From Bradymonadales bacterium (GTDB taxonomy: Bacteria; Myxococcota_A; Bradymonadia; UBA4248), in contig JBBAEA010000002.1 in assembly GCA_041656175.1 (NCBI GenBank), positions 3,697 through 67,696 of the forward strand: DNA of 64,000 bases, read 5' to 3'. The notes under the pieces are model-generated. The model searched no databases, had not been told where the DNA came from, and saw only the letters and a program-made list of their open reading frames with translations. Made by a program: the position numbers and the translations under genes. Shown one piece after another: positions 8,155 to 51,035 of this stretch (position 1 is its first letter; each line of letters starts with the position of its first letter).

Positions 8155-9258
8155 TTACAACTGCATTGGCATAACGATAAAGTCCATTTTTTTGTTGTCT
8201 AGATCGCGGATTAAGCTGGGATTATCGGTGTCGATAATCTCTATCGAAACGCGGTCTCCATCGATTACTCTCAAAACTTCTTCAATGTATTTCCAGTTAA
8301 ATCCAACCGTGACACCTGAGCCATCGTATTCACACTCAATGGCATCATGCACCTCGCCAGCCTCGGAATCAAAAGCGTGAATTTCCAGCTGCCCGGGGCT
8401 AAGGCTTAAGCGTATGGTACCAACCTTGGCGGTGTAGTTGCTAGCGCGTTTTAGAACTTGACTAAAACTCGACCTATCAACAAGTGCTTTGTGATCTAAG
8501 AATTTTGGAATAACTTTGGTAAAGTCTGGAAACTGTCCTGGAATGAGCTGTATCGATAAAGAAATTTTTGGGCTCAAAACGATCAGTCGCTCTTTTTCTA
8601 TACCCAGTTTTAGCTCTCCACCTTCCATCACGCGATTAATCTCGATAAGACCTTTTCGTGGAATGATCACACCCTTCTCTAGCGCTTCAGGAACGTCGTT
8701 AGTGACATTCATCTTGTTCTCAACCCGCGAAAGCCTGTGACCATCGGTCGATACCATTTGTACGCGACCATCTTTGTGCAGGACGAAGAAAGCGCCGTTG
8801 AAGTCCACACGTGTTTCGTCAGTGGAGATGCTAAATATCGTTTTACTGATCATATTGGAGAGTACAGAGGCATCTATGCTTAGATTATCATCAGCGTTCA
8901 TTGTCGGAAGTGATGGAAAATCATCGACGCTACTGCACATCAAGCGCCCCTTAAAACGTCCAGACTCTAAAATAGCTTGGTTACCTTCAAGGGATATGCT
9001 CAGAGGACCAGATTGCAAAGACTTCACTGTTTCAAATAGTCGTTTTGCTCCCAAAACTATCCGCCCCTCTTCTTCCACCTTAGCATCGCAAGTACTTCGT
9101 ATCGCAAGATCCAAATCAGTACCCAAAACAGTGATGCTGTTCTCACGCGCCTCGATCATGCAGGAAGCCAAAATAGCTAACGTCGTTTTGCTTGAGCAAA
9201 CTCCTTGGATCCTTGCTAACAACTCACTAAATGCGTCTCTGTCTATGCTGAATTTCAT
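8155..9258 (-). CDS. dnaN: DNA polymerase III beta sliding clamp
   Basis: 367 aa. MKFSIDRDAFSELL..TLAILASCMIEA.. through ..FIVMPMQL, clamp family over the full length. Confidence 0.9.
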   Translation of the reverse strand: MKFSIDRDAFSELLARIQGVCSSKTTLAILASCMIEARENSITVLGTDLDLAIRSTCDAKVEEEGRIVLGAKRLFETVKSLQSGPLSISLEGNQAILESGRFKGRLMCSSVDDFPSLPTMNADDNLSIDASVLSNMISKTIFSISTDETRVDFNGAFFVLHKDGRVQMVSTDGHRLSRVENKMNVTNDVPEALEKGVIIPRKGLIEINRVMEGGELKLGIEKERLIVLSPKISLSIQLIPGQFPDFTKVIPKFLDHKALVDRSSFSQVLKRASNYTAKVGTIRLSLSPGQLEIHAFDSEAGEVHDAIECEYDGSGVTVGFNWKYIEEVLRVIDGDRVSIEIIDTDNPSLIRDLDNKKMDFIVMPMQL

Positions 9259-9299
9259 TGGTCATCCTGTTTTCTAAAAGCAAATCCCCCCTCACTTCA

Positions 9300-9560
9300 T
9301 TCTATATCTAACTTATCTTTATAAGTCTATATAAGTTCGTATTAGAATTAGGCCTTGTGGATATCTGTAAAACCACGATAATTGATTGAAAATATTGAAT
9401 AATTCATCCACATCACTTTCAAAATTACTGTGTATTTCCACTGCATAAGTCTGTGCACAACGACATCCCAAGTGAGTGCTCACACTTATCCACTAGCCTA
9501 TCCACAGCTTATAGACAAGTTTTGCACAGATTTAAGCACAGGCAAATTTTAGACCTTTTG
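9300..9560. promoter_or_regulatory. Putative oriC / DnaA-box cluster in AT-rich spacer upstream of dnaN
   Basis: At least four 8/9 matches to TTATCCACA: TGTGGATAT at 9356-9364 (reverse), TCATCCACA at 9404-9412, TTATCCACT at 9486-9494, CTATCCACA at 9497-9505. AT-rich. Gene orientation switches from minus to plus across this gap. Confidence 0.55.
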
Positions 9561-9690
9561 CTCCAGATCTGAGTGACTAGCTTATGGCGTTTACAGTGAC
9601 AAAATTGATCTCATACGATAAACTTAGAGCAACAATGCTCTGTGTGGCTGTTTGGATTTGAGCCACTGAGGCAAGATTTTAGGGTGGGAG

Positions 9691-11391
9691 ATGAATAAAT
9701 CAGCGCTATTGGCAAAATGCCTAGGATTTACGTTGCTATTGTATACAAGTCATGTTTTTGGACAAGATACTATAGATAATAGCGAATTTTGGCCAAAATC
9801 TGTAGAAAATTCTGTGGAAAAAATTTCTTCCGATCCCGACACGCAAGACTCTGTAGAGGCAGTTTATCCATTAGATAAGGATGAGCAAGAAGCGAAAAGC
9901 GTTAAAAACGCGGAAAACGTCATTTACGAATCTGAGGAAAATCCGGCCGATGGAAGGATGCAAGTACAGCTTCGCCCAGATCCGCTAAGTATCGACGACG
10001 AAAGTTCCAAAAATCTAGAAGAAATCGCGCTCTCTGATCCTAAAATCGTCGCTATCGATATGGACGCTATCCAGAATGAAAACAAGAGTCAAAGTGCCAA
10101 AGACTATATCGCCGATAGATTTCGCTTCTCCTCCTATGGACGAGTTCAACCCTCCATTAACCCAGCCACTGGCGAATCTGGCCGCCAGACGCGCTTAGTT
10201 TATCCAAACCCAAGAGTAGACGAGGCATCGTATCTAGAACTGAGTTTAGACTACACACCCTATAGATCTAATGATGGGGTAGAAGTCGATGTCATGACTA
10301 CCATAGCGTTTGGGGGCGAAAAACTCTTCCACTTCGATAGCGATTTTGAAGCAAAAGTCGCGGTGCGTAATCTTTATGTAGAGGCGAGGAACTTATTTTT
10401 TACAGGTACGGTACTGTGGGCTGGTTCGCGAATGTACCGCGGTGATGACATCTATTTGCTCGATTTTTGGCCACTCGATAATCTTAACACCTACGGCGGC
10501 GGTGTCGGCTATAGAGCGAAATCACGAAGCAATATCGATCTGCACTTTGGCGTAAATCGCCTGAATAACGATTATCAGTACCAAGTAGTCGACGTCATTA
10601 ACGAACGTTTCGTCGGGGAGCAAGAAGTAGTGTTCCTAGATAGACAACGTTTTATAGGTTCGCTAAAATTTGAACAACTCTTGGGTGGCGAAGAAATTCC
10701 GCTCTTTAAACTCAAAGCCTATGCAGAATTCCACACCCTAGCTAAGGGTAAACTACTCCTAAAACAGCCAGAAATCGAAAAGGATTTGCCCAACGATAGC
10801 GGTTGGTTATTAGGTTTACAGTTTGGTGTATCTCATTTTTATCGCGATTCCTTCGTCAATCTTTTTGTAAAATACGCTTCAGGCTTAGCGGCCTACGGAG
10901 AGCACGCCATACCCTTTGGCGTGAATAACGACATGCGCGCAAAAAACGCAAAACAATTCCTCCTAGGCTTAAGCGCTGGTCTCGATACCCCATATTTTGG
11001 CGCCATATTTGGCGGCTACTTGCGACATTTCAAAGACGCCGATGCCAATGTCCAAGACTATGACGATGGGTGGGAAGGAGTATGGGATCTGCGACTCTCT
11101 GGCTTTATTGGCAAATACTTTAGCCCCTCCGTAGAGTTTAGCCAACAACTTCGCCGTGCAAACGACGTCAACCCCGTAAGCCTAAAACAAGAACTAGCTC
11201 AAATTTTTAAAATATCTATACTACCTGCAGTGCGTTTTGGTGACGGACTCTTGACAAGACCCGAAATACGCCTAAACTACAGCGTAAGCTTTCTTAATGA
11301 TGCGGCAAAAAATACTTTTGCACCGCGCGATCGACTAAGAAACCGTTCCATTGAGCACTTCCTAGGTTTTGCAGCAGAATGGTGGTTTTAA
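9691..11391 (+). CDS. Putative outer-membrane beta-barrel protein / porin
   Basis: 566 aa. Cleavable signal peptide. Alternating beta-strand pattern. C-terminus ends AEWWF, the aromatic terminal Phe typical of OMPs. Confidence 0.55.
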   Translation: MNKSALLAKCLGFTLLLYTSHVFGQDTIDNSEFWPKSVENSVEKISSDPDTQDSVEAVYPLDKDEQEAKSVKNAENVIYESEENPADGRMQVQLRPDPLSIDDESSKNLEEIALSDPKIVAIDMDAIQNENKSQSAKDYIADRFRFSSYGRVQPSINPATGESGRQTRLVYPNPRVDEASYLELSLDYTPYRSNDGVEVDVMTTIAFGGEKLFHFDSDFEAKVAVRNLYVEARNLFFTGTVLWAGSRMYRGDDIYLLDFWPLDNLNTYGGGVGYRAKSRSNIDLHFGVNRLNNDYQYQVVDVINERFVGEQEVVFLDRQRFIGSLKFEQLLGGEEIPLFKLKAYAEFHTLAKGKLLLKQPEIEKDLPNDSGWLLGLQFGVSHFYRDSFVNLFVKYASGLAAYGEHAIPFGVNNDMRAKNAKQFLLGLSAGLDTPYFGAIFGGYLRHFKDADANVQDYDDGWEGVWDLRLSGFIGKYFSPSVEFSQQLRRANDVNPVSLKQELAQIFKISILPAVRFGDGLLTRPEIRLNYSVSFLNDAAKNTFAPRDRLRNRSIEHFLGFAAEWWF

Positions 11392-11470: not shown

Positions 11471-12325
11471 ATGGATTCTATAAATCAGAATAACAACCAA
11501 CGAAGTTTCGATGCCGACGCTGCCTACGAATATCTTCGCCTGCACGGCGATTTGCTTTGCAATGCTAGACTTTCCCATTGGCGCCAAATTAGCGACGACA
11601 ACACGTTTTGGAAAACCTTATCCCAGTTCCAAGCCCCAAGTGGCGGCTTTAAAGGTGGTATCGACCCCGACTACCAGGGAGAAGTTCCCTCTGTGCACTC
11701 CACCATCGAAGCCATGCGCATTATGGTCATGCACAACCAACTTGAAGACCCACACGTGGCAAAAACCCTCGACTTCCTACGCTCATGTGTCCTTAGCGAC
11801 GGCACCTGGCAAGAGCGCGATGAGGTTTTAGCCGACCCACTTTCACCCGCATGGTATAAACCTGCCCAGTTCCGCGTCTACGAAACAGCCAGCATCGCTG
11901 GCTACGGTCTCGAACTTGGCTTCAGCGAGGCATGGGCGCCCGCCGTCCGATACGTGCGCCAAATCTGGACCCAAATGCCACTTGCCGAAACCGCACACCC
12001 CTACTGGGCAACGCTACTACTTTTGGGTCGCAGCACCGCCGACGCCGATATCAGCATCACTTTGGACGCCCTCGATAACCTGCACATGTTTGTGCGAAAG
12101 CACAAAATTGACCCTTACGACTGCTCTACCATCGTCGAAATTCTCGACGGCATAGAAGACCCCAACGTTGACGAAATCCTGTACCGCATCGCACAAATAC
12201 TCGCCCAATCCCAAGACGCTGACGGTGGAATTACCACGCAGTATAGCGAAAAATTGCGCGTACAAGGCACATTTAACGCCCTTTTTGCAGTCGCCATCAT
12301 GGCACAACGGGGAGTTTTGGAGTAA
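11471..12325 (+). CDS. Hypothetical protein with QW/prenyltransferase-like repeats
   Basis: 284 aa. Recurrent Q..(S/D)GG(F/T/I)..(W/Q) motifs: QAPSGGF, SDGTWQE, DADGGITTQY. Weak resemblance to the terpenoid cyclase / prenyltransferase alpha-alpha toroid. Confidence 0.4.
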   Translation: MDSINQNNNQRSFDADAAYEYLRLHGDLLCNARLSHWRQISDDNTFWKTLSQFQAPSGGFKGGIDPDYQGEVPSVHSTIEAMRIMVMHNQLEDPHVAKTLDFLRSCVLSDGTWQERDEVLADPLSPAWYKPAQFRVYETASIAGYGLELGFSEAWAPAVRYVRQIWTQMPLAETAHPYWATLLLLGRSTADADISITLDALDNLHMFVRKHKIDPYDCSTIVEILDGIEDPNVDEILYRIAQILAQSQDADGGITTQYSEKLRVQGTFNALFAVAIMAQRGVLE

Positions 12326-15085: not shown

Positions 15086-15113
15086 ATCTTTATCCTTCCA
15101 TTAATAACGGGCG

Positions 15114-15187
15114 TACGCCCAGCAGGATTCGAACCTGCGACCCACGGCTTAGAAGGCCGTTGCTCTGTCCAACTGAGCTATGGGCGC
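15114..15187 (-). tRNA. tRNA-Arg (anticodon TCT)
   Basis: Reverse complement folds as GCGCCCA..AGCTCAGTTGGACAGAGC..ACGGC-CTTCTAA-GCCGT..GGTTCGAATCC..TGGGCGT with a discriminator A. Confidence 0.85.
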
Positions 15188-15193
15188 ATGTGA

Positions 15194-15267
15194 TCGGGGC
15201 GATAGGATTCGAACCTACGGCTTCCTGCTCCCAAAGCAGGCGCGCTACCAGACTGCGCCACGCCCCG
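15194..15267 (-). tRNA. tRNA-Pro (anticodon TGG)
   Basis: Reverse complement reads CGGGGCG..GCGCAGTCTGGTAGCGC..CCTGC-TTTGGGA-GCAGG..GGTTCGAATCC..CGCCCCG-A. Confidence 0.85.
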
Positions 15268-15717: not shown

Positions 15718-17796
15718 ATGAAAAAAATTGCGTTTTATTTATCAATCATGCTTATTGGCGCATTTTCAACGATTAGTTGTAATGATCAAGGTGATAACAA
15801 AAGCTGCGACGACGTTGAGTGTGGAGCTGATGAAATCTGCGAAAAAGGAGAGTGCGTTCCCAATGAAGTAGATCTCTGCAAAGACGTCAGTTGCGATCCT
15901 AACCAGCACTGCGAAAAAGGAGAGTGCGTTCCCAATGAAGTAGATCCCTGCAAAGACGTCAGTTGCAATCCTAATCAGCACTGCGAAAATGGAGAGTGCG
16001 TTCCCAATGAAGTAGATCTTTGTAAAGACGTCAGTTGCGATCCTAACCAGCACTGCGAAAAAGGAGAGTGCGTCGATAATACTGAAAATCCTTGCAAAGA
16101 CGTTAGTTGCGAAAAAGGCCAAAGATGTGTAGGGGGTACGTGCGTCGATAGCTGTACAGGCATTGTTTGTATTGACAATCACATTTGTAAAAACGGTGAG
16201 TGCGTTTTAGATAATGACAAACTTTGTGAGAATGTCACTTGTACGACAGGATTTCATTGTAGTGCGGGCGAGTGCGTAAAGATTGATCCTTGCGATGACG
16301 TATTGTGTGACCCTGGTTTTGTGTGCCAGTTGGGCAACTGCTACGACAAAGCCATCTTCCCTTGTCTCGGTGTAACTTGCCCCGATGATCAGGTCTGCGA
16401 AAGCGGCGTGTGCGTAGTCATAGATGAACACGTTGAATTTGAAGAACCCGTGGGCAATGTTGTACCTAACTGGGATTTTGAAGAGTGGGAGCTTAGTTCG
16501 CCTACTTCATGGCATAGTTTTGGAATAGAGGTCGTTGTTAGTAAAAATACAAGTAATCCAAAATCAAAATTGGCTGCCGTTAACATTAATAATCCGCTCA
16601 AAAATAACGCAAGACTAGAGTCTATCCCATTGACGCTTGATGTAGGGAAGTATTATTGCTCTGCTTGGCTTAAAGGCGAAGGCACGGTTTTATTGGGTGC
16701 ACGCCTATCTGATACCGATAATCCTTCGAAGGGAAAATACAAATATAACTCAGAGACAGTATTAAATGGAAGTGGCCCTTATAAAGAGGTCTTCTTTAAT
16801 TTTACTGTCGATGCGACCATTCAAAAGGTAACGATTCTCATTACCGTAAAGAACACGAGCGGAATGAATGTTAACGTTGATGCCATTTCTTGTGTTCGTG
16901 CCGCTGGAAATTGTGACAACGTAACTTGCAAAGAATGGGAAGAATGCCGAGAATATGATGGTAGCTGTCGACCAAAAATAAGTCGCTGTAATACGGCAGA
17001 TGACTGCAGCGAGTGGCAGACTTGTGACGCCAACCATTATTGTGTACTCGCCGAGGGGCGCTGCAAAAGTACAGTGGATTGTGATGAAAATAGTGATAAG
17101 CCAAAATGTGATGTCAAAACCAAAATTTGTGTTGCTGGCGATCCTTGTGAAGGGGTAACGTGCGACGAGTGGAAAACGTGTCAACGCGCATCTGGCTTGT
17201 GTGTACTCGATGAAAATCGCTGTATTACATCAAAGGATTGCCTCAAAGATAAACCTGCATGCGATGTTACGACGCACACTTGTCAGGACTCTACACACGA
17301 TTGTAACATCTTCCCCAACGGTGGTTTCGAAAAATGGGATGACTATTATATACCGTATCACGGCGATAATTACCTTCCCGATTTTTGGTATGGTTTATTT
17401 GATCATCTATGGGACAATAAATACAACTCGGAAATTGATCCCAAAAATATTAAGCAGTACACGACGTCCGTGCACTCTGGGAATTATGCCATGCAAATCA
17501 TTTTCACAGAGTTTGTAGCAGATCGCTTAGCTTCCGATGAATTTGATATTCCACCAGGTGCGTATACATGCTCTTATTGGGTTCGAGGTAAAGGGACGTT
17601 ACGTCACCGCAGCTATTCTTCAGGTGGCGAATCTCCGTACACGGACTTTTACCAAATTGATACCGATAAGTGGCAACGTGTAGAATTTAATGCGCCTGGC
17701 AATGTTCGAGAATTTAGACTTATCCTGTACGTTAGCCAAACTGATGCGAGTAAAGATCACGTACAGATCGACGACGTTGTCTGCACTAAAAACTAA
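15718..17796 (+). CDS. Secreted lipoprotein with tandem Cys-rich modules and two beta-sandwich (CBM/galactose-binding-like) domains; hypothetical
   Basis: 692 aa. Signal with lipobox ISC. Four or more copies of CKDVSC(D/N)PNQHCE(K/N)GECVPNEVD, followed by further C-x-C modules. Confidence 0.65.
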   Translation: MKKIAFYLSIMLIGAFSTISCNDQGDNKSCDDVECGADEICEKGECVPNEVDLCKDVSCDPNQHCEKGECVPNEVDPCKDVSCNPNQHCENGECVPNEVDLCKDVSCDPNQHCEKGECVDNTENPCKDVSCEKGQRCVGGTCVDSCTGIVCIDNHICKNGECVLDNDKLCENVTCTTGFHCSAGECVKIDPCDDVLCDPGFVCQLGNCYDKAIFPCLGVTCPDDQVCESGVCVVIDEHVEFEEPVGNVVPNWDFEEWELSSPTSWHSFGIEVVVSKNTSNPKSKLAAVNINNPLKNNARLESIPLTLDVGKYYCSAWLKGEGTVLLGARLSDTDNPSKGKYKYNSETVLNGSGPYKEVFFNFTVDATIQKVTILITVKNTSGMNVNVDAISCVRAAGNCDNVTCKEWEECREYDGSCRPKISRCNTADDCSEWQTCDANHYCVLAEGRCKSTVDCDENSDKPKCDVKTKICVAGDPCEGVTCDEWKTCQRASGLCVLDENRCITSKDCLKDKPACDVTTHTCQDSTHDCNIFPNGGFEKWDDYYIPYHGDNYLPDFWYGLFDHLWDNKYNSEIDPKNIKQYTTSVHSGNYAMQIIFTEFVADRLASDEFDIPPGAYTCSYWVRGKGTLRHRSYSSGGESPYTDFYQIDTDKWQRVEFNAPGNVREFRLILYVSQTDASKDHVQIDDVVCTKN
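15805..16080 (+). repeat. In-frame 66-bp tandem repeat (about 4 units) inside the Cys-rich lipoprotein gene
   Basis: gatctctgcaaagacgtcagttgcgatcctaaccagcactgcgaaaaaggagagtgcgttcccaatgaagta recurs with fewer than 5 mismatches. Confidence 0.8.
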
Positions 17797-19421: not shown

Positions 19422-20806
19422 CTACAGATCCGTGATCCGTCCTAAAAATATCAGCGCCTTGGATTTGGTGTCGACAATGGCAAAGAGGAAGGGTCTATCG
19501 ACAATAAATTTGATGATTTCGCGAGCTTTTTCAATATCGCTCTTAGCGGTTCGCGGTTTATTGAGCACAACGGCGGTGGCCGCCGCCGCTTCGGCGCCAG
19601 CTTCATCAATTTCGACAAAGGCTTTATGAAAGATGTTACTGATGTAGAGCTCTTTTTTTCCAGTCATGCCGCTAAAAATCGGCGGCAGCATCCGAGAATG
19701 CCAATAGTGCGCCAAGTGTCTCAAGCATTCCTTTGCCATCAACCTTCAATTCTTGGCGAAACTTTGGCAAAGCCAGTTTCACGAAGCGCATTTGCTTCCT
19801 ATTGAGCATCATGCGGAAGTCTTCAGCCTTTAGCTCATCTTCGAGGTTTGCGAGTGCATAGCCCTCATTCGGTAGAACAAGCAACATGGACAGTGGAGAA
19901 TTCTTGTAGTAAAGGGTAAGTGCCTTGTAGTTCCTCCCAATAAAGACTTCCATGTTGTCGAGCCTGTGCATGGTCGGAACCTTTTTTTTGTTGCGCAGAC
20001 CTTTGAAGCTCTCGTTGCGGGTCTCTGACTTCTTAAACGGTATCTCCCACGGTGCTTTGAGGTAGATCGCGTTGACCAAAACCATGCGTGTGTATTCATC
20101 AATACTTCCGCTAGGCAAGAGACCTTGGATTTTGTTACTCGTCTTTTCGGCCACCCAACGATTGATCTTTTGGCGACTAGGCTCTGGGGCAGCTTCGAAA
20201 TCAAGGGGTTCAATGGCGATGCGGTAGTTTGCTTTGAGTCCCTCCATGAATTCAGGCAAAAAGGAGTAGCGTTTGGCGGGATAAATCTTATTGGCAATGC
20301 GCAGCAGAACCCCCTTAGCGGGTGCATCAAAGATACTTTTTTCAATCTGGAGACTAAGCGCATCCCTGTTGGCGCTATCCCGCTCAAAACCCATGGTTGT
20401 TAAGCAGTTCTGCGCGTGTCTCTCCCCGAGCTCCCGTAATCGTCATGCCCATGGCACGCTCAAAGGAATAGGGCGAGAAGACGACATTTTTCCCTGCGGG
20501 AAAAGTCTTAAGCGCTTGCCAAGCAAAGCGATTATTGGCATCAACCCACTCATCGATAGAGCCATCAAGCAAATGAGCTTCAGCCGAAGGCTCCTCAACA
20601 GCCTGCTGAGCTACGTCGTCTTTGTCTTTTTCCTCTACTTCTTCTTTTACTTCGTCTTTGGCTGCTCCCTGTGCAGAATCAATGGAATTATTGCCGGTTG
20701 CAGGCTGTTCTGCCTTGGGTTGGCAGGCAAAAAACCATAGAGAACACAAAAGGGATAAGCACAAAATGAAATAGTATCGCTGCATATTCACTCCTAAAGC
20801 TAGCAC
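19422..20806 (-). pseudogene. Serpin (serine protease inhibitor) lipoprotein gene split into three overlapping frames by two frameshifts
   Basis: ORFs 20384..20806, 19672..20394 and 19422..19742 together give a full serpin. There is a signal/lipobox N-terminus, the hinge EIDEAGAEAAAATAV and the C-terminus FLFAIVD...LFLGRITDL. Frame breaks lie at a T4 run (~20390) and a T5 run (~19693). Confidence 0.6.
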
Positions 20807-21076: not shown

Positions 21077-21204
21077 AAAAATGAAAATGATGCCACCGCT
21101 AATTTCTATTGTAGCAAAACCTTGTACAAGGGCTAAGGATTTCATACAATCGTGGTGTTTTTCGGATGCCGTGGAGGCGTTCTGCTATACAATATAATGA
21201 GGTC

Positions 21205-22332
21205 AAGATGGCTGGACTTTCGCTTAAAAAGATCGTGAAGCGCTATGGGAATCAGGAACCTACGCTGCGGGGGATTGATTTAGAGATTCGTGATGGGGAG
21301 TTTTTGGTGCTGGTAGGGCCGAGTGGTTGTGGCAAGTCGACGCTGCTGCGTACGATTGCGGGGCTGGAGTCGATTACGGATGGGGAGCTGCGGATTGGGG
21401 AGCGCGTGGTCAATCAGGTTGCGCCTAAGGATCGCGATATTGCGATGGTGTTTCAGAGCTATGCGCTGTATCCGCATATGACAATTCGGCGCAATATGAG
21501 TTTTGGCTTGGAGGTGCGGCGCGAACCGAAGGAAAAGATTGAGGCGCTTGTGAATGATGCCGCGCAGATGCTGGGCTTGGTGGAGCATTTGGACAAGTTG
21601 CCCAAGATGCTTTCGGGGGGGCAGCGACAGCGAGTGGCGATGGGACGGGCGATTGTGCGCCGGCCAAAAGCGTTTCTTTTTGATGAGCCCTTGAGCAATC
21701 TTGATGCGGCGCTGCGAACGCAAATGCGCGTTGAAATTAGGCGCTTGCATCGCAAGCTTAAAACGACAATTATTTACGTAACGCATGATCAAATCGAGGC
21801 GATGACGCTGGCGGATCGTATCGCGGTTTTGGAGGGGGGGCATTTGCAGCAGGTGGGAACGCCGCTTGAGCTATTTTTAACGCCAAATAATAAGTTCGTT
21901 GCGGGTTTCATTGGAAGCCCGGCGATGAATTTTGTGCCAGCGACGGTTTTTGTTAAAGAGCAACGCGCCTTTGTTCGTATCAATGCGAAGTCTTCTATTG
22001 AACTCGGGGAATCTGTAGCGAGCAAGGTCGAGGATGATCAAGATGTTATTTTGGGCATTCGCCCGCAAGATGTGGTGTTGGGCAACGAAACGCACCCTGT
22101 AAATTTGTATGTCAAGGTCGATGTTGTTGAAACTCTAGGTTGGGAGAGCCATGTGCACTTTAGGCTAGGGGATGCGCCGTTTTTGGCGGTGCTGGAGGCG
22201 CAGTCGGCCGCAGCGTTTAAGGTCGATGAGGAGATTGGTCTGCACGTCCCGACTTCGGCGGTTCACTTGTTTAACACCGAAACCCACGTCGCGATTGCTC
22301 ATGGAGACGTGGCTGAGCCAGAGGATGCGTAA
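21205..22332 (+). CDS. Sugar ABC transporter ATP-binding protein (MalK/UgpC type)
   Basis: Walker A GPSGCGKST. LSGGQRQR signature. Walker B LFDEPLSNLD. C-terminal TOBE-like regulatory domain. Confidence 0.85.
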   Translation, partial: KMAGLSLKKIVKRYGNQEPTLRGIDLEIRDGEFLVLVGPSGCGKSTLLRTIAGLESITDGELRIGERVVNQVAPKDRDIAMVFQSYALYPHMTIRRNMSFGLEVRREPKEKIEALVNDAAQMLGLVEHLDKLPKMLSGGQRQRVAMGRAIVRRPKAFLFDEPLSNLDAALRTQMRVEIRRLHRKLKTTIIYVTHDQIEAMTLADRIAVLEGGHLQQVGTPLELFLTPNNKFVAGFIGSPAMNFVPATVFVKEQRAFVRINAKSSIELGESVASKVEDDQDVILGIRPQDVVLGNETHPVNLYVKVDVVETLGWESHVHFRLGDAPFLAVLEAQSAAAFKVDEEIGLHVPTSAVHLFNTETHVAIAHGDVAEPEDA

Positions 22333-22376
22333 AGCGTCTTATTCGTTGGATGCTCATGTAACTTTTACACCAAGGA

Positions 22377-24956
22377 GTGATAATGACGAGTAAACGATAC
22401 GCATTATTTGAATTTGCCCCATCGTTTCGCGTGGGTACTTCGATATTTTTGATATGGCTGTTTAGCCTTTGTTTTGGATTTTTTGGCTGCGACGCAGCTA
22501 CGCCAGAGCCAGGCGAGGAACAGGGCGAGGATTTGCAGCGCGTGAGTGCGAAGGGGGCGGCCGATGTGACACTTTGGCACGCCTACCGCGGCGACGAACA
22601 GCTTGCGCTTGATGGCGCTGTTGAAGAGTTCCGAAAACTGCACCCCACATGGAAAATCGACGTTTTACCAGTCGCTGATGAGTCCTATGCCAATAAGCTC
22701 TTTACGGCGATTCCGCGGGGAAGCGGGCCCGACGTGTTTATTGCCGCCCATGACAATATTGGCTCCTGGGCCAACAACCAAATCATTGCCGATGTCGACG
22801 CGTATTTTGGCGCCGATGAACGCAAACTCTTCCACCCCCTAACGGTAGATGCGCTGCTCTATCAGCGAGAGTTGACGACGGCTGAGCGCGAACAACGAGG
22901 GCAAAAACTCGATGAAGAGCGCATTTATGCCATGCCTTTGGCCTATAAGAGCCCTGTACTATTTTACAATAAAGATCTTGTTTCTACGCCACCAAGCGAT
23001 ACGAACGAGCTTTACGCGATCATGCAAAAGCTCACCGATACGGTGTCGCAGCGCTACGGCTTTGTGTATGAGAACACGAATCTCTTCTTTCACGCGGCGT
23101 GGTTAAACGGTTTTGGTGGCACCTTATTTAATGAGGCGGGCAATGTCGAGATTGCCACCGAAAACAACGCGGCGAGCTTTGAGTTCGCGGCTAAACTCAA
23201 CGCGTACATGCCCGCTGGCGTGGATGGTGCGCGAATAGGTAAGCTCTTTAATGATGGCACGGCTGCGATGGTTATTAGTGGTCCGTGGTTTATGGCGGAA
23301 CTGCGAGAAGATCTCAACTACGGTGTAGCGACGATGCCGCTCATCAACGAGTCTGGAAACTTTGCTGCACCCTTTGTAACGGCTGAGGGAATATTTTTAT
23401 CAAAATACGCCAAAGACAAAAAATCGACGGAGCAAATTCAAAAATCTGTCGAGCTCATGCAATTTATCGCGAAAGATTCTGCGTATCGCCGACTAATCGA
23501 CGGCAAGCAGATGGTTGCCTACCTCGACGCCTACGAGCAACTCAAAGGCGATAACGACGAAAAGGCCGCTTTCATGAAAAGCGTGGCACCGACGTTTTTG
23601 GCACAGCTTGAGCATGCCTACCCCACAAGTTCTCGCCCTGAGATGGGTTCGTTGTGGGCTAGCATGCGCCAGGCGCTGCAAAAATCTTTGTTCGGCGGAC
23701 CCTCGGGCGAAACGCCATATTGGTTGTTTTTGCTCATTTCGGTCTTTGTAGCCGCTCTACTTCTTTTGTCTAAGGCGACAAACCCGAGTCTAAACACCAA
23801 GCGAAGTCAACAATTATACGTTGCGGGTTCTATCCTATCGTTTGTGGCGCTCATTCCCATTATTTGGCGCATCGCGTCTATTCAAGGAGTGAACCGCCAG
23901 GTCGAACCGATGAAGGCGTTGATGGAAGCGCAAAATCGTTTCTTGCAACTCAAAGCGCCAGCGATGGAGGCGGCAAACCCTGGTCCCTTCCTGGCCGTCG
24001 TTTGCGGAATTTTGCTCATCATCATGATCCTCAGCATCAAAGCGTATAAGCGCCACAAGGCCAAAAACATCGAATACACGGATAACAAAGTGGCGGCTGC
24101 TTTCGTGGCACCAGCCATCATCGGCATGATCGTTTTGGTTATTACGCCCTTTACCGTGGGTGCTGCGCTATCCTTTTTTAGCTACCAAAACGGCGAGTTT
24201 ATTTTCGTGGGTGCCCAAAACTTCGTGCGGCTATTTTCGACGCAACAGGCATCATTTACAGATTCGCTCTCGTTTTACTTCACGCTTGTGGTTACCGTTT
24301 TGTGGACGGTGGTGAACGTTTCATTGCACGTTTGCTTCGGTATTATATTGGCACTGCTACTACGCGATCCTTGGCTGAAACTCAAAGGGATGTACCGTGT
24401 ATTATTCATCATTCCGTGGGCAATGCCGAACTATATTACGGCGCTTATTTGGCGCGGCATGTTTGATACGTCGTTTGGCGCTATCAACGGAATTTTAGTT
24501 TCGCTTGGCCTAAACCGCGTCGAGTGGTTTAACGAGTTTTTAACCTCGTTTTCTGCCAACCTTATTACCAACACTTGGCTGGGCTTCCCCTTCATGATGG
24601 TGGTAACGTTGGGCGCGCTACAAGCGATCCCCCGAGATCTCGAAGATGCCGCCTCCGTCGACGGTGCAAACGCCATACAGCGCTTCCGAAACGTCACCTT
24701 CCCGCTGCTCAAACCAGCGCTTATGCCCGCGGTTATTTTGGGCTCGGTTTGGACCTTCAACGCCTTTAACATCATTTACTTAGTGAGCATGGGAAACCCC
24801 GATGGCTCAACCGAAATATTGGTTTCCGAGGCGTATAAGTGGGCCTTTGAGCGCCAGTTCCAATACGGTTACGCTGCCGCCTACGCCATGGTCGTATTCT
24901 TTATCCTAGTCGTATACTCTAAGTTGACGCAACTCGTTTTGGAGGACAAACAATGA
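22377..24956 (+). CDS. Fusion protein: periplasmic sugar-binding lipoprotein (SBP family 1, MalE-like) joined to a MalF-type ABC permease
   Basis: 859 aa. Lipobox FFGC. About 440 aa of SBP fold (WHAY..DVFIAAHDNIGSW). Then 6 or more TM segments carrying the EAA loop EDAASVDGANAIQRFRNVTFP. Confidence 0.75.
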   Translation: MIMTSKRYALFEFAPSFRVGTSIFLIWLFSLCFGFFGCDAATPEPGEEQGEDLQRVSAKGAADVTLWHAYRGDEQLALDGAVEEFRKLHPTWKIDVLPVADESYANKLFTAIPRGSGPDVFIAAHDNIGSWANNQIIADVDAYFGADERKLFHPLTVDALLYQRELTTAEREQRGQKLDEERIYAMPLAYKSPVLFYNKDLVSTPPSDTNELYAIMQKLTDTVSQRYGFVYENTNLFFHAAWLNGFGGTLFNEAGNVEIATENNAASFEFAAKLNAYMPAGVDGARIGKLFNDGTAAMVISGPWFMAELREDLNYGVATMPLINESGNFAAPFVTAEGIFLSKYAKDKKSTEQIQKSVELMQFIAKDSAYRRLIDGKQMVAYLDAYEQLKGDNDEKAAFMKSVAPTFLAQLEHAYPTSSRPEMGSLWASMRQALQKSLFGGPSGETPYWLFLLISVFVAALLLLSKATNPSLNTKRSQQLYVAGSILSFVALIPIIWRIASIQGVNRQVEPMKALMEAQNRFLQLKAPAMEAANPGPFLAVVCGILLIIMILSIKAYKRHKAKNIEYTDNKVAAAFVAPAIIGMIVLVITPFTVGAALSFFSYQNGEFIFVGAQNFVRLFSTQQASFTDSLSFYFTLVVTVLWTVVNVSLHVCFGIILALLLRDPWLKLKGMYRVLFIIPWAMPNYITALIWRGMFDTSFGAINGILVSLGLNRVEWFNEFLTSFSANLITNTWLGFPFMMVVTLGALQAIPRDLEDAASVDGANAIQRFRNVTFPLLKPALMPAVILGSVWTFNAFNIIYLVSMGNPDGSTEILVSEAYKWAFERQFQYGYAAAYAMVVFFILVVYSKLTQLVLEDKQ

Positions 24957-25855
24957 GTAAAGCCAGCAAAAAACAATGGGTAGACCGCCCAGTGAGCATC
25001 AGTCGTGGGCGCGCCATGCTCAAAGGTGGCTTAACACACTTGGCGCTCAGCATTGCCGCCTTCATCGTCATTTACCCCGTACTCTGGGTCGTCAAAATGG
25101 CGCTCACCCCAAACCGCGAGGCAGGGCTCGATCCCAACCCCTTTATCGACCCTAGCAAAGCATCACTAGAAAACTTCGAGTACGTCCTTTTCCGAACGGA
25201 TGTCGCTGGAAACTCACTTTTCGCGCACCAACTTTTTAATTCTATTGTCATCGCCGCATTAACTACCATTATCGGCGTTGTCTTAGCCTGCACCGCCGCA
25301 TACGGCTTTAGTCGCCTCAAATTCATTGGCCGCGAAGTTGGCCTCCAAGGCTTCCTCGTCACGCAAATGTTCCCAGGCGTAGTCATGGCCATCCCTCTCT
25401 ACATCCTACTGGGCAAACTCGGCCTGCTCAACTCCATCGTCGGCCTTGTACTCGTCTACTCCGTTTCGGCGCTCCCTTTCTGCGTCTGGAACCTTAAGGG
25501 CTATTTCGACACCATACCCAAAGAACTCGAAGAAGCCGCCATTGTCGACGGCGCCTCGCGACTCAAAATCTTTACCACCATCGTCTTGCCCCTCGCGCGC
25601 CCCGCTATCGCCATCACCGCCCTATTCTCCTTCATGACCGCGTGGAACGAATTTATCCTCGCCGCAACCCTCATGAACAAAGAACTCGCCTACACCCTGC
25701 CCGTCGCCCTCAAACAATTCGTCGGCGCCCAGTCCGCCGACTACGGCTACTTCGCCGCGGGTGCCATACTCGTATCCATCCCCATCATGGCGCTGTTCTT
25801 TGCCTTGCAAAAAAACTTGGTCGGTGGCCTTACTGCCGGCGGCGTCAAAGGTTAA
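24953..25855 (+). CDS. Sugar ABC transporter permease (MalG/UgpE type)
   Basis: 300 aa. EAA motif EEAAIVDGASRLKIFTTIVLP. Overlaps the upstream gene by 4 bp. Confidence 0.85.
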   Translation: MSKASKKQWVDRPVSISRGRAMLKGGLTHLALSIAAFIVIYPVLWVVKMALTPNREAGLDPNPFIDPSKASLENFEYVLFRTDVAGNSLFAHQLFNSIVIAALTTIIGVVLACTAAYGFSRLKFIGREVGLQGFLVTQMFPGVVMAIPLYILLGKLGLLNSIVGLVLVYSVSALPFCVWNLKGYFDTIPKELEEAAIVDGASRLKIFTTIVLPLARPAIAITALFSFMTAWNEFILAATLMNKELAYTLPVALKQFVGAQSADYGYFAAGAILVSIPIMALFFALQKNLVGGLTAGGVKG

Positions 25856-42902: not shown

Positions 42903-45041
42903 CTAGCTCATCAAAACGCGAACAGAATCGGCTTCCACGGTTATTCTTAGCCCTTTCTCGCTGTGCGCTTCATCGATGTCGACGAAGTCCTGTGGAGAGT
43001 CGAGTGCGGTGTTAATGATGCTCTTCCACGTCCTGCGAGGAATCTCGAAAGACAGTGGCTCTCGCCACGCATTCATGGCGATATAGAAACGATGCTCTCG
43101 CGGGCCAGCCAATAGTTCGCATGCTAGGCTGTGGGAGTGCGCGCTCCAATCGGGTTTGCCCATCGAAACGCCATGCCAAATAATACCAGCTTGTGTTCTC
43201 AGAGCCGTTTGCGTAGCGACAAAGGGATCGGCGAATTCAGTACGCTTTAGCGCTGGATGTTTTGCGCGAAGCTTGATAAGCAGTCGCATAAAACGCAGCA
43301 TTTCTTCGCCATTTTCGTTGTATGTCCAGTCTATCCAGCCTACAGGGTTATCTTGGCAGAACGCGTTGTTGTTGCCGCCTTGACTTCGCCAATACTCATC
43401 ACCGCCCAAGATCATCGGCGTTCCCCGTGAGATGAAAAGCGTGGTTAACAAATTTTTTGCGCGCTGCTTTCGGCGGCGCTCTAGCGCTTCATCCCCTGGC
43501 CCCTCAACGCCCATATTATCGCTAAAGTTTTGCTCCGAGCCATCACGATTTTGCTCTCCATTACGTTCGTTGTGCTTTTTATTGTAGGAGCAAAGGTCTC
43601 GCAGGGTAAAACCGTCGTGAGCCGTTACAAAGTTTACACTTTGGGATGCATTTTGTTTTGTGCCAAATAAGTCACGGCTACCACCAATACGTAGAGCCAA
43701 GTCCTTTACCGTGTCGTTATCGGAACGCCAAAATCGGCGCAAATCATCGCGAAAGCGCCCATTCCACTCTGCCCAGTCCACTGGGAAACGCCCGACTTTG
43801 TACATGCCAGCGGCGTCCCAAGATTCGGCAATGAGCTTGCAGCCTCGTAAGATCGGGTCGGCTGCAATATCGTTGAGTAAACCAAGTTGAGGATCCGAAA
43901 TCCACTCCCCTTCGTGGGAGCGCCCCAAAATAGTAGCTAGGTCAAAACGAAAACCGTCTACTCGCATCTCGACTAGCCAAAATCGTAGGCAATCAATGAT
44001 AAGCTGTTTCATAACGGGATGGTTACAATTCATGGTATTGCCGCAACCCGTATAGTTCTCGTATCGCTTGTTCTTATCAAGCATGTAATAAACGGAGTTA
44101 TCTAGCCCGCGGTACGCGATGGTAGGACCGTGTTCGTTTCCTTCTCCCGAATGATTAAAGACGACGTCAAGAATGACTTCGATTTTTGCTTCGTGAAAAC
44201 GCTGTACCATTTCGCGAAATTCACGCGGACCCTGTGTAGGATCGGGATCTGACACGTAACTGTGGTGCGGGGCAAAAAAGCCGATAGTCGCATAGCCCCA
44301 GTAGTTGCGGTTGCGCTCACCAGTGACAGGGTCGACCAAATTTGGCGGTTCCCATTCGTTAAACTGTGCAACAGGCAAAAGTTCGATGGCTGTAATGCCA
44401 AGCGACTTTAAATGCGGGATTCGATCGCAAAGCCCCGCAAATGTTCCAGGCAACTTTGATAACGACGAAGGATGTGCCGTCATTCCCTTCACATGGCACT
44501 CGTAAATAACCGAGTCCTCCAAGCTATGTTTAGGTCTAGCGGTTTCCCCCCATGCAAACGAAAGCGGTTTCAAGGCTATGGACTTTGCGGTAACGCCCGC
44601 GCTCCAATACGGTGAAAATGAGCGTTCTCGCAGGGAGGAATCGCGATCGTAGCCATAAATCGCGTCCGAAAATACATTGTAGCGTCCGACGTATGCGCGA
44701 GAATAAGGGTCGGCCAACAATTTATTGACGTTAAATCGATGTCCGTGCCGTGGCATATACGGCCCGTCTAGACGAATGCCGTATAACTGACCCGCCCGAA
44801 CGCCTTCGACAAAAATATGCCAAATATCTCCAGTTCTATGAAGATCTGAGTCTAGGACATGCGTCCTATATGGCATCTCATCTTCGGCGTTGCGAAACAA
44901 GTCTATGTATGCAGCCGTTGCATTACGCGAGTAAAACGCAAAGTTAACTCCCTCATCGCTCACCGTTGCGCCGAAGGGTAAGGGGTGTCCTATCGATCTA
45001 TACATCGCGTGCTTTCCAAGTACGCCGGCTGCTAAAAGCAA
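42903..45041 (-). CDS. glgX: Glycogen debranching enzyme (isoamylase, GH13)
   Basis: 712 aa. N-terminal CBM48 region (GATVSDEGVNFAFYS). GH13 catalytic regions (GFRFDLA, ..VTAHDGFTLRD..). Confidence 0.85.
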   Translation of the reverse strand: MLLAAGVLGKHAMYRSIGHPLPFGATVSDEGVNFAFYSRNATAAYIDLFRNAEDEMPYRTHVLDSDLHRTGDIWHIFVEGVRAGQLYGIRLDGPYMPRHGHRFNVNKLLADPYSRAYVGRYNVFSDAIYGYDRDSSLRERSFSPYWSAGVTAKSIALKPLSFAWGETARPKHSLEDSVIYECHVKGMTAHPSSLSKLPGTFAGLCDRIPHLKSLGITAIELLPVAQFNEWEPPNLVDPVTGERNRNYWGYATIGFFAPHHSYVSDPDPTQGPREFREMVQRFHEAKIEVILDVVFNHSGEGNEHGPTIAYRGLDNSVYYMLDKNKRYENYTGCGNTMNCNHPVMKQLIIDCLRFWLVEMRVDGFRFDLATILGRSHEGEWISDPQLGLLNDIAADPILRGCKLIAESWDAAGMYKVGRFPVDWAEWNGRFRDDLRRFWRSDNDTVKDLALRIGGSRDLFGTKQNASQSVNFVTAHDGFTLRDLCSYNKKHNERNGEQNRDGSEQNFSDNMGVEGPGDEALERRRKQRAKNLLTTLFISRGTPMILGGDEYWRSQGGNNNAFCQDNPVGWIDWTYNENGEEMLRFMRLLIKLRAKHPALKRTEFADPFVATQTALRTQAGIIWHGVSMGKPDWSAHSHSLACELLAGPREHRFYIAMNAWREPLSFEIPRRTWKSIINTALDSPQDFVDIDEAHSEKGLRITVEADSVRVLMS

Positions 45042-45044
45042 AAG

Positions 45045-45117
45045 TGGCTAGGGACGGAATTGAACCGCCGACACGAGGATTTTCAGTCCTCTGCTCTACC
45101 TACTGAGCTACCTAGCC
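45045..45117 (-). tRNA. tRNA-Phe (anticodon GAA), copy 1
   Basis: Reverse complement reads GGCTAGG-TA-GCTCAGTAGGTAGAGC-A-GAGGA-CTGAAAA-TCCTC-GTGTC-GGCGG-TTCAATT-CCGTC-CCTAGCC-A. Confidence 0.85.
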
Positions 45118-45132
45118 CTAGGGCGAAACAAA

Positions 45133-45205
45133 TGGCTAGGGACGGAATTGAACCGCCGACACGAGGATTTTCAGTCCTCTGCTCTACCTACTGAGCTACC
45201 TAGCC
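45133..45205 (-). tRNA. tRNA-Phe (anticodon GAA), copy 2
   Basis: Identical 73-nt sequence 88 bp downstream of copy 1. Confidence 0.85.
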
Positions 45206-45351
45206 ACAAAACGCTCTCACAATAAAGAGCGCAGCCACTTACTACGCGAAGTCAGCACGCGTGTCAAGGAATTTCATTTCTCACTGAAAAGTATGAAGAA
45301 CTTATACCTAAGTCGTAAAATTATCCCGTATTTGGCTGTTCTTAAACGCTA

Positions 45352-50123: not shown

Positions 50124-51035
50124 TTAGTTGAGCACGCAGGCTTTTCCGAATTGGTAGGCGTCGATGTATTCGCGCTCGGGGGCGAGGTGCTTTTCGAGCC
50201 TTTTGAGGATGCGGCTTTCGAGTTGGCGAGCGCGTTCGCGGCTGATGGAAAAGACGTTGCCGAGCTCTTGTAAGGTTAGCGGAGACTCACTGTTCATGCG
50301 AAGTTGCCAGATTTGGGAGTCGCGGCCTGTGAGTTTTTGTTCAAATTCTTCGAGGCTAGCTTTGATGCGGTTTGCGGCAAATTGTTGGTCAATAAGCTCT
50401 TCGGCGCTGTCGTCGTGGGAGGCGATGGAATCAATAACGCAGTTATCGCTATCTTCGCCGCCGATGGGCGCAAAGAGCGAAAGTTCGTGGTTGCCGAGGC
50501 GTTGTTGCATTTCGGTAATTTCGTTCTCGCGTACGCCAAGGGACTGGGCGAGTGCGGCGGTGGTGGGGGTTTTGCCGGCTTGGCGGAATTTTTGCTCTTC
50601 TTTGTGTAAGTTGTAGAAGAGTTTGCGCTGGTTTTGCGTGGCGCCGATTTTGACGAGCCGGTGGTTATCCATCAGGAACTTGAGGATGTAGGCACGGATC
50701 CAGAATTGGGCGTAGGTGGAGAGTCGGATGTTTTTACTGACGTCGAATTTTTCGACAGCAAAGAGCAAGCCAACGTTTCCTTCTTGAATGAGGTCAAGAA
50801 GTTGGGCGTTTTGGCTTTGGTAGTCGCGGGCGATTTTAACAACCAAGCGAAGATTAGCGTTGATGAGGCGTTTTTTGGAGATCTCGTCGCCGCTTTGTGC
50901 TGCGCGTGTTAGTGCGTATTCCTCTTCGCGCGTGAGCACTTGATAGCTTTTGATGCTATCGAGGTATTGTTGCAGGGATGTCGTTGCGACTTGTCGTTTG
51001 TAGTTGTTTGTGCGCTTTTGCAGCGAGTATTTCAT
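50124..51035 (-). CDS. rpoH: RNA polymerase sigma-32 (heat-shock sigma factor)
   Basis: 303 aa. Sigma-70 regions 2-4. RpoH box ATQNQRKLFYNLHKE. Confidence 0.75.
   Translation of the reverse strand: MKYSLQKRTNNYKRQVATTSLQQYLDSIKSYQVLTREEEYALTRAAQSGDEISKKRLINANLRLVVKIARDYQSQNAQLLDLIQEGNVGLLFAVEKFDVSKNIRLSTYAQFWIRAYILKFLMDNHRLVKIGATQNQRKLFYNLHKEEQKFRQAGKTPTTAALAQSLGVRENEITEMQQRLGNHELSLFAPIGGEDSDNCVIDSIASHDDSAEELIDQQFAANRIKASLEEFEQKLTGRDSQIWQLRMNSESPLTLQELGNVFSISRERARQLESRILKRLEKHLAPEREYIDAYQFGKACVLN

Follow-up and report, generated by a model that had tools for sequence, protein, structure and literature searches.

A probable replication origin beside dnaN, with no dnaA nearby, in an uncultured Bradymonadales bacterium

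Background

In Bacillus subtilis, the basal unwinding system of the replication origin (oriC incC) is made up of DnaA boxes 6 and 7, a GGCC motif, a series of DnaA-trios and an AT-rich 27-mer. The element reads TTATCCACA AATCCACA GGCC CTACTATTACTTCTACTA as given in the supplement to Pelliciari et al. (2021, PMC8287927). A GC-rich motif of 4-5 bp, which is GGCC in B. subtilis, lies between the unwinding-proximal box and the trios, and a perfect 3'-GAT-5' trio corresponds to 5'-CTA-3' on the complementary strand (Jaworski et al. 2021, PMC8235120).

Origins located at dnaN and away from dnaA have also been described. In Sorangium cellulosum the origin was predicted in the gap between a kinase gene and dnaN 'rather than the dnaA gene', with the usual inversion of GC skew reportedly missing (PMC2650636). 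Based on Ori-Finder/DoriC predictions, a dnaN-side origin away from dnaA has been described as universal in cyanobacteria (PMC2650636), and in vitro the DnaA protein of Synechococcus elongatus was able to unwind the cognate scaffold of box and trios (PMC8287927). A dnaN-linked origin with dnaA elsewhere is therefore a type of arrangement already known from cyanobacteria and other myxobacteria. In Escherichia coli, oriC lies between mnmG and mioC, about 42 kb from dnaA. This origin, which is separated from dnaA, was given a weak score for the trio module (PMC8287927).

Here we analyse a 64-kb stretch of DNA (64,000 nucleotides, hereafter the window) from a Bradymonadales bacterium. An original prediction for this stretch had proposed a probable replication origin beside dnaN, and had offered three explanations for the missing dnaA gene: that dnaA lies elsewhere, that the origin has been rearranged, or that the DnaA boxes only autoregulate dnaN.

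Results and discussion

DnaA boxes in the gap between dnaN and a porin gene

The intergenic gap upstream of dnaN has a GC content of 38.0%, against 48.2% for the whole window, in agreement with the AT-rich gap of about 430 bp that had been predicted there. Its right-hand neighbour, predicted to encode an outer-membrane protein, is assigned by Pfam to the LamB-type porins and sits at the place that dnaA occupies in close relatives. The features of the gap and its flanking genes are as follows.

8155-9258, minus strand: dnaN (DNA polymerase III beta clamp), 367 aa (TIGR00663, E=2e-79)
9259-9690: intergenic gap of 432 bp between dnaN (minus strand) and the LamB-type porin gene (plus strand)
9300-9339: AT-rich stretch of 40 bp with 22.5% GC, the proposed DNA unwinding element; 70% conserved with relative L004
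9340-9351: four DnaA-trios; the minus strand reads CTA ATT CTA ATA
9352-9355, minus strand: GC-rich spacer from the proximal box to the trios, AGGC, part of GGCC; the GGCC motif is that of B. subtilis
9356-9364, minus strand: proximal DnaA box ATATCCACA, one mismatch, oriented toward the trios and dnaN
9365-9373, minus strand: weak tandem half-site GTTTTACAG ahead of the proximal box, degenerate (three mismatches)
9404-9412, plus strand: DnaA box TCATCCACA, one mismatch; the L004 counterpart is TTATTCACA
9452-9460, minus strand: weak DnaA box TTGTGCACA, two mismatches; the L004 counterpart is a perfect TTATCCACA
9486-9540, plus strand: phased array of five head-to-tail DnaA boxes with starts at 9486, 9498, 9509, 9520 and 9532
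9691-11391, plus strand: LamB-type outer-membrane porin gene, 566 aa (Pfam PF02264, E=3e-28)

Boxes were scored against the E. coli-type consensus TTATCCACA. Four of them carry exactly one mismatch (9356-9364 on the minus strand; 9404-9412, 9486-9494 and 9498-9506 on the plus strand), which bears out the claim of at least four such boxes, and another four carry two mismatches (9452 on the minus strand; 9509, 9520 and 9532 on the plus strand). Eight boxes with at most two mismatches thus fall within 185 bp, where the window-wide density would give about 1.4 per 432 bp. In 100 first-order Markov replicates of the window, no more than two one-mismatch boxes were found within 160 bp, compared with the four observed. 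The boxes cluster in this intergenic region beyond chance, and the region adjoins a replication gene, dnaN, both of which are expected of an oriC.

The five boxes of the phased array read, in order, TTATCCACT, CTATCCACA, TTATAGACA, TTTTGCACA and TTAAGCACA. They are spaced by 12, 11, 11 and 12 bp, or about one helical turn, and a five-box phased array is also present in L004. We read it as a putative DnaA-oligomerisation array. E. coli oriC likewise has a phased head-to-tail box array with a spacing of about 11 bp, and it too stands apart from dnaA after an ancestral rearrangement. However, it does not adjoin dnaN and it relies on 13-mer repeats and IHF.

An oriented unwinding module next to dnaN

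Read on the dnaN strand, the dnaN-proximal part of the cluster is GTTTTACAG ATATCCACA AGGC CTA ATT CTA ATA, followed by 40 bp of 22.5% GC, the dnaN ribosome-binding site and the ATG. The start of the proximal box is 106 bp from the dnaN start codon. On the plus strand, 9340-9351 reads 3'-GAT TAA GAT TAT-5', and this is the strand predicted to receive a DnaA filament. The AT-rich element that is expected to flank the boxes of an oriC lies directly after the trios, and GC content over 9000-9900 is lowest in the 50 bp at 9300-9349.

The published pattern for basal unwinding elements (a box with at most two mismatches, a spacer of at most 16 bp and at least three DnaA-trios of correct polarity; PMC8287927) is present in the gap. 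However, this pattern is permissive, with 45 matches in the window against 32 expected, and therefore carries no weight. A more stringent pattern, consisting of a box with at most one mismatch, a spacer of at most 6 bp and at least four trios including at least two CTA, has a single match in the 64 kb, which is the module in the gap, and occurs in 0 of 100 simulations.

The module resembles the B. subtilis system in both order and polarity. The two share tandem proximal boxes, a GGCC-type spacer, CTA-type trios on the box strand, an AT-rich stretch and then dnaN, and in both there are further distal boxes upstream. In contrast to B. subtilis, dnaA is not the upstream neighbour in the window, and no second box region flanking dnaA is found within the 64 kb. 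In the window, the tandem box pair has a degenerate upstream member (three mismatches), and there are four trios, two of them perfect, rather than the six of B. subtilis.

Several intergenic DnaA boxes away from dnaA, as in the window, are also found in the six non-origin clusters of B. subtilis and in datA and DARS of E. coli. To our knowledge, none of these has been described with an oriented module of box, GC spacer, trios and AT-rich DNA; the window differs from the non-origin clusters, as described, in having one. A consensus scan, which is weak evidence, found no sigma-70-like dnaN promoter inside the gap. The combination that would mark a regulated promoter or non-origin cluster, namely boxes without an unwinding module together with an identifiable promoter, is not what the gap contains. 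An Rfam search of the gap gave no match.

Conservation against a relative with the same layout

The relative L004 has a DnaN protein 75% identical to that of the window and shares the porin-dnaN layout. The dnaN-side 287 bp of the gap (9259-9545) are 62% identical between the two, whereas the porin-side 145 bp (9546-9690) are 32% identical, which is the random level. The best-conserved segment is 9300-9373, which carries the AT-rich stretch, the trios and the proximal box, with 70-74% identity. Box positions are kept between the window and L004 even where the box sequences differ. At four-fold sites of dnaN itself, identity is only 27%, meaning that synonymous sites are saturated. That 9259-9545 has kept 62% identity despite this saturation argues that it is functional non-coding DNA under purifying selection.

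The position of dnaA in the window and in relatives

No dnaA was found in the 64-kb window by tblastn with two DnaA proteins of the clade (best E=0.58), which leaves a dnaA-free span of 9 kb to the left and 54 kb to the right of the gap. The claim that the canonical dnaA is missing therefore holds within the 64 kb. A search with a clade DnaA protein for the organism's own dnaA gave no match that could be traced back to JGI sample 3300060803 or to either of the two Logan runs with this dnaN; a second, better box cluster may lie beside that gene. Several candidate proteins were rejected. P0158 (L009/L010) comes from a 59%-GC organism; P0153, P0277 and P0280 come from other samples, with P0277 and P0280 showing a divergent dnaN-dnaA layout; and P0278 is a mis-clustered fragment of 44 aa. 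A DnaN-only scan of GTDB genomes revealed no close relatives, and the species is without a representative there. An exact 57-mer from the start of the window is missing from the metagenome_contigs collection, though it is present in the JGI contig (L001), and sample 3300060803 is therefore not in that collection.

The flanks of dnaN in relatives were examined over 8 kb on each side where the contig allows, and they show three layouts. In the canonical layout, dnaA and dnaN lie in tandem; this is seen at most loci of Myxococcota and other former Deltaproteobacteria, as well as at L014. In a second layout, dnaA and dnaN are divergent and separated by a spacer of 0.7-2.6 kb. This arrangement characterises the clade closest to the window (L007, L008, L011, L012, L013 and L021; 48-51% DnaN identity) and is also found at L093 and L095-L098, which were reached via their DnaA proteins. 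Finally, dnaA is missing from the 8 kb examined upstream of dnaN in an uncultured Bradymonadales bacterium (L017), a Persicimonas sp. (L018), a Lujinxingia vulgaris MAG (L019) and an 'uncultured proteobacterium' (L020). Downstream of dnaN, the flanks cover 8 kb for L017 and L019 and about 4 kb for L018. The arrangement with an origin at dnaN and dnaA unlinked is thus also present in L004 and, within the flanks examined, in L019, L017 and L018.

A module of tandem boxes, GC spacer and trios, aimed at dnaN, is located 100-370 bp upstream of dnaN in all three layouts. Representative modules are listed here.

L014 (tandem layout): TTATCCAC ATATCCACA GGGT TTA CTA TTA
L008 (divergent layout): TTATCCACA TACCCACA GCCC CTA TTT CTA
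L007 and L005: TTATCCAGA AATCCACA GGA CTG ATG ATG ATG ATG
L012 (divergent layout): AATACACA GAC ATG ATA ATG ATA ATG ATA
L019 (no nearby dnaA): TTATCCAC ATATTCACA GGCC CTA CTA GTA CTA
L017 and L018 (no nearby dnaA): CTTTCCACA TTTTCACA CCCC CTA CTA CGA CTA CTT

Judged by its position, the window module is the homologue of the classical origin in the dnaA-dnaN spacer, and dnaA is the moving part.

Some relatives carry an additional type of element. In most of the divergent loci (L007, L012 and L021), one or two head-to-head pairs of perfect boxes, TTATCCACA-N5-TGTGGATAA, lie on the dnaA side of the spacer, away from dnaN. Such pairs are also present in L005 and L016, whose contigs end upstream of dnaN. 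They are located at 145-167 in L005 and at 9136-9158 and 9322-9344 in L007, and where there are two pairs these are about 160-190 bp apart. Neither the window nor L004 has head-to-head pairs of perfect boxes, which suggests that the rearrangement breakpoint lies inside the ancestral dnaA-dnaN spacer; dnaA may have carried a portion of the ancestral origin away with it.

At one divergent locus, L011 (5447-8000), the box cluster is 1.5-2 kb upstream of dnaN and adjoins the divergent dnaA. The spacer, of about 2.5 kb, is unusually long, perhaps owing to an insertion, in which case it would further mark this spacer as a rearrangement hot spot.

Comparison with Sorangium and cyanobacteria

As in Sorangium and in cyanobacteria, an oriC-like box cluster precedes dnaN in the intergenic gap of the window, and dnaA is unlinked. 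Sorangium, a member of the same phylum, was likewise reported to lack the usual GC-skew inversion. The neighbouring gene differs, being a LamB-type porin gene rather than the kinase gene of Sorangium, and so does the box consensus, which is the E. coli-type TTATCCACA in the window, TTATCCCCC in Sorangium and TTTTCCACA in cyanobacteria.

Gene context, strand bias and GC skew

To the left of dnaN, and all on the minus strand, are genes for a signal-peptide protein, pfk, two hypothetical or outer-membrane proteins, pyrH and secA. The strand-bias switch cited in the original prediction is present insofar as the minus strand carries all seven genes from secA to dnaN and the plus strand the four genes that follow on the right; however, it amounts only to a local divergent gene pair. 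To the right of these four genes the strands are about even (approximately 23 kb plus and 26 kb minus, estimated from the list of open reading frames), and orientation is mixed beyond 13.7 kb, with a minus-strand run of about 21 kb at 39-60 kb. A switch this local makes for a weak strand-bias argument for an origin.

The GC skew of the window is similarly unhelpful. Raw cumulative skew has a shallow, noisy local minimum near 12-14 kb rather than at 9.4 kb, with only 9 kb of sequence to the left of the gap. Skew at four-fold sites, computed separately for each gene strand and each side of the gap, gave no replication signal in the 64-kb window. To the right of the gap, the coding-strand skew is -0.16 for plus-strand genes and -0.08 for minus-strand genes; to the left it is +0.07, only because of secA. 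Coding-strand skew at four-fold sites spans +0.5 to -0.7 among individual genes, independent of strand and position, and the genes at 3-2357, 21166-22332 and 55451-60478 differ strongly from those at 11471-12325, 24953-25855 and 50124-51035. GC skew is therefore uninformative in this window, because gene-specific codon skew swamps any replication signal.

The last gene of the first group (55451-60478, minus strand) encodes a Type ISP restriction-modification enzyme, a single polypeptide of 1675 aa that combines Mrr-like nuclease, ResIII helicase, coupler, methylase and Type_ISP_C domains. Unlike most of its neighbours, the gene has a coding strand that is strongly G-rich at four-fold sites (+0.47).

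The replicon carries the core genes secA, pyrH, pfk, dnaN, argS and fmt, an Hsp70-family gene and a Mur ligase gene. We rejected a plasmid or secondary replicon, as the window has core housekeeping genes. The other genes that often mark origins (gyrB, recF, parAB, mnmG and rnpA) were not found in the window, and a parS search of the window gave one match with three mismatches, which is chance level. A 374-aa gene downstream of dnaN was considered as a divergent recF and rejected for having no similarity to recF; its product looks like a secreted or membrane protein. The DnaN protein is 100% identical to that of an NCBI 'Bradymonadia bacterium' MAG and to that of JGI metagenome 3300060803, with the JGI contig showing 6 differences from the window over 19,258 positions.

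Several further features of the window were recorded. Besides the LamB porin gene, genes of a maltodextrin- or glycogen-utilisation type encode a CBM_4_9 protein, a MalK-like ATPase, an 859-aa fusion of solute-binding protein and permease, a second permease and an isoamylase-type debranching enzyme; together they are scattered over 9691-11391, 15718-17796, 21166-25855 and 42903-45041. A bacterial serpin gene at 19672-20806 (minus strand) is split over two overlapping open reading frames, of which 20384-20806 corresponds to positions 2-51 of the serpin profile and 19672-20394 to positions 76-295; the gene is frameshifted, a pseudogene or misassembled. Two copies of tRNA-Phe(GAA) lie in tandem at 45044-45206 (minus strand) with 14 bp between them, and tRNA-Arg(TCT) and tRNA-Pro(TGG) are side by side at 15113-15267.

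Interpretation and alternative explanations

We consider it probable, at roughly 75%, that 9259-9545 is oriC, or at least its unwinding half, kept at dnaN when dnaA became separated. This reading builds on box and trio elements whose order, orientation, non-random occurrence, conservation and positional homology are observed in the comparisons above. The proposal of a probable origin beside dnaN is supported in particular by the oriented unwinding module, by its positional homology to the dnaA-dnaN spacer and by purifying selection. Among the three explanations offered for the missing gene, that dnaA lies elsewhere is the best supported, with the origin staying at dnaN. That the boxes only autoregulate dnaN is less likely because an unwinding module is present.

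A broader form of this last idea is that the gap holds a DnaA-controlled dnaN promoter or a DnaA-titrating cluster, akin to the non-origin clusters of B. subtilis or to datA of E. coli, and that the true origin left with dnaA. We regard this as unlikely, though several observations agree with it: dnaA is not in the window, there is no skew switch, and the head-to-head box pairs found on the dnaA side in relatives are missing. Non-origin clusters of DnaA boxes are documented in B. subtilis (PMC3245932), and at three dnaN loci from the GTDB scan that have no nearby dnaA (L015, L030 and L080) there is no box cluster at dnaN, so the link between origin and dnaN is not obligatory. However, a regulatory site needs no oriented module of box, GGCC, trios and AT-rich DNA, and the one in the gap is unique in the window and without a counterpart in any of the 100 simulations. 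The trio and AT-rich part is moreover the best conserved (70-74%), the module is positionally homologous to that of the relatives' dnaA-dnaN spacer, and the consensus scan found no sigma-70-like promoter from which dnaN could be regulated within the gap. Still less can be said for a chance pile-up of box-like 9-mers, unrelated to any DnaA function, in an AT-rich promoter region, an explanation to which we give almost no probability. AT-rich sequence does somewhat favour box-like words, and all four good boxes have a mismatch; but none of the 100 simulations reaches even three boxes in 160 bp, box positions are kept in L004 despite saturated synonymous sites, and box clusters are found at the same place in many relatives. 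The simulations and the conservation in L004 effectively refute this explanation.

It is also conceivable, but highly improbable in our estimate, that the window retains just the unwinding half, on the dnaN side, of a bipartite origin while a dnaA-side half, located elsewhere, is still needed, either through looping or as a DnaA reservoir. The single spacer of the relatives does contain two distinct box groups, head-to-head pairs on the dnaA side and a head-to-tail array with the module on the dnaN side, and the dnaN-side group stands alone in the window and L004. Distal boxes of B. subtilis act via a DNA loop, at several hundred bp too, but they are dispensable once DnaA is raised (PMC6669920). 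In addition, the search for this organism's dnaA gave no locus, and the five-box phased array of the window could itself be the distal subregion. As for the ancestor, we attach little credence to the speculation that its origin was bipartite, with head-to-head pairs on the dnaA side and the phased array and unwinding module on the dnaN side, and was cut in two by the rearrangement, such that one origin half and dnaA with its own box pairs, now far apart, cooperate or the organism runs on half an origin.

Under the preferred reading of an oriC kept at dnaN, initiation can be modelled on the basal unwinding systems of B. subtilis and Helicobacter pylori, by analogy with which DnaA would bind the gap, unwind it and fire replication there. 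DnaA would fill the five-box array (9486-9540) along with the scattered boxes at 9404 and 9452. The DnaA molecule on the proximal box (9356-9364) would then nucleate a filament of ATP-DnaA that passes over the GGCC spacer onto the plus-strand trios at 9340-9351. By stretching the plus strand, this filament would melt the 22%-GC stretch at 9300-9339, where the helicase could load and bidirectional forks could be established, one of which would run straight into dnaN.

Conclusion

The origin proposed here leaves knowledge of initiation itself unchanged. A split ancestral origin, if true, would be a natural experiment on what share of a bacterial origin is dispensable. For an uncultured lineage of the class Bradymonadia, a well-supported origin call helps to orient MAG assemblies and to make growth-rate estimates from read depth (peak-to-trough ratio). 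Across the Myxococcota group compared, the unwinding module travels with dnaN, while dnaA may be tandem, divergent or unlinked. This comparison supports the dnaN-proximal unwinding module as the conserved core of the origin.
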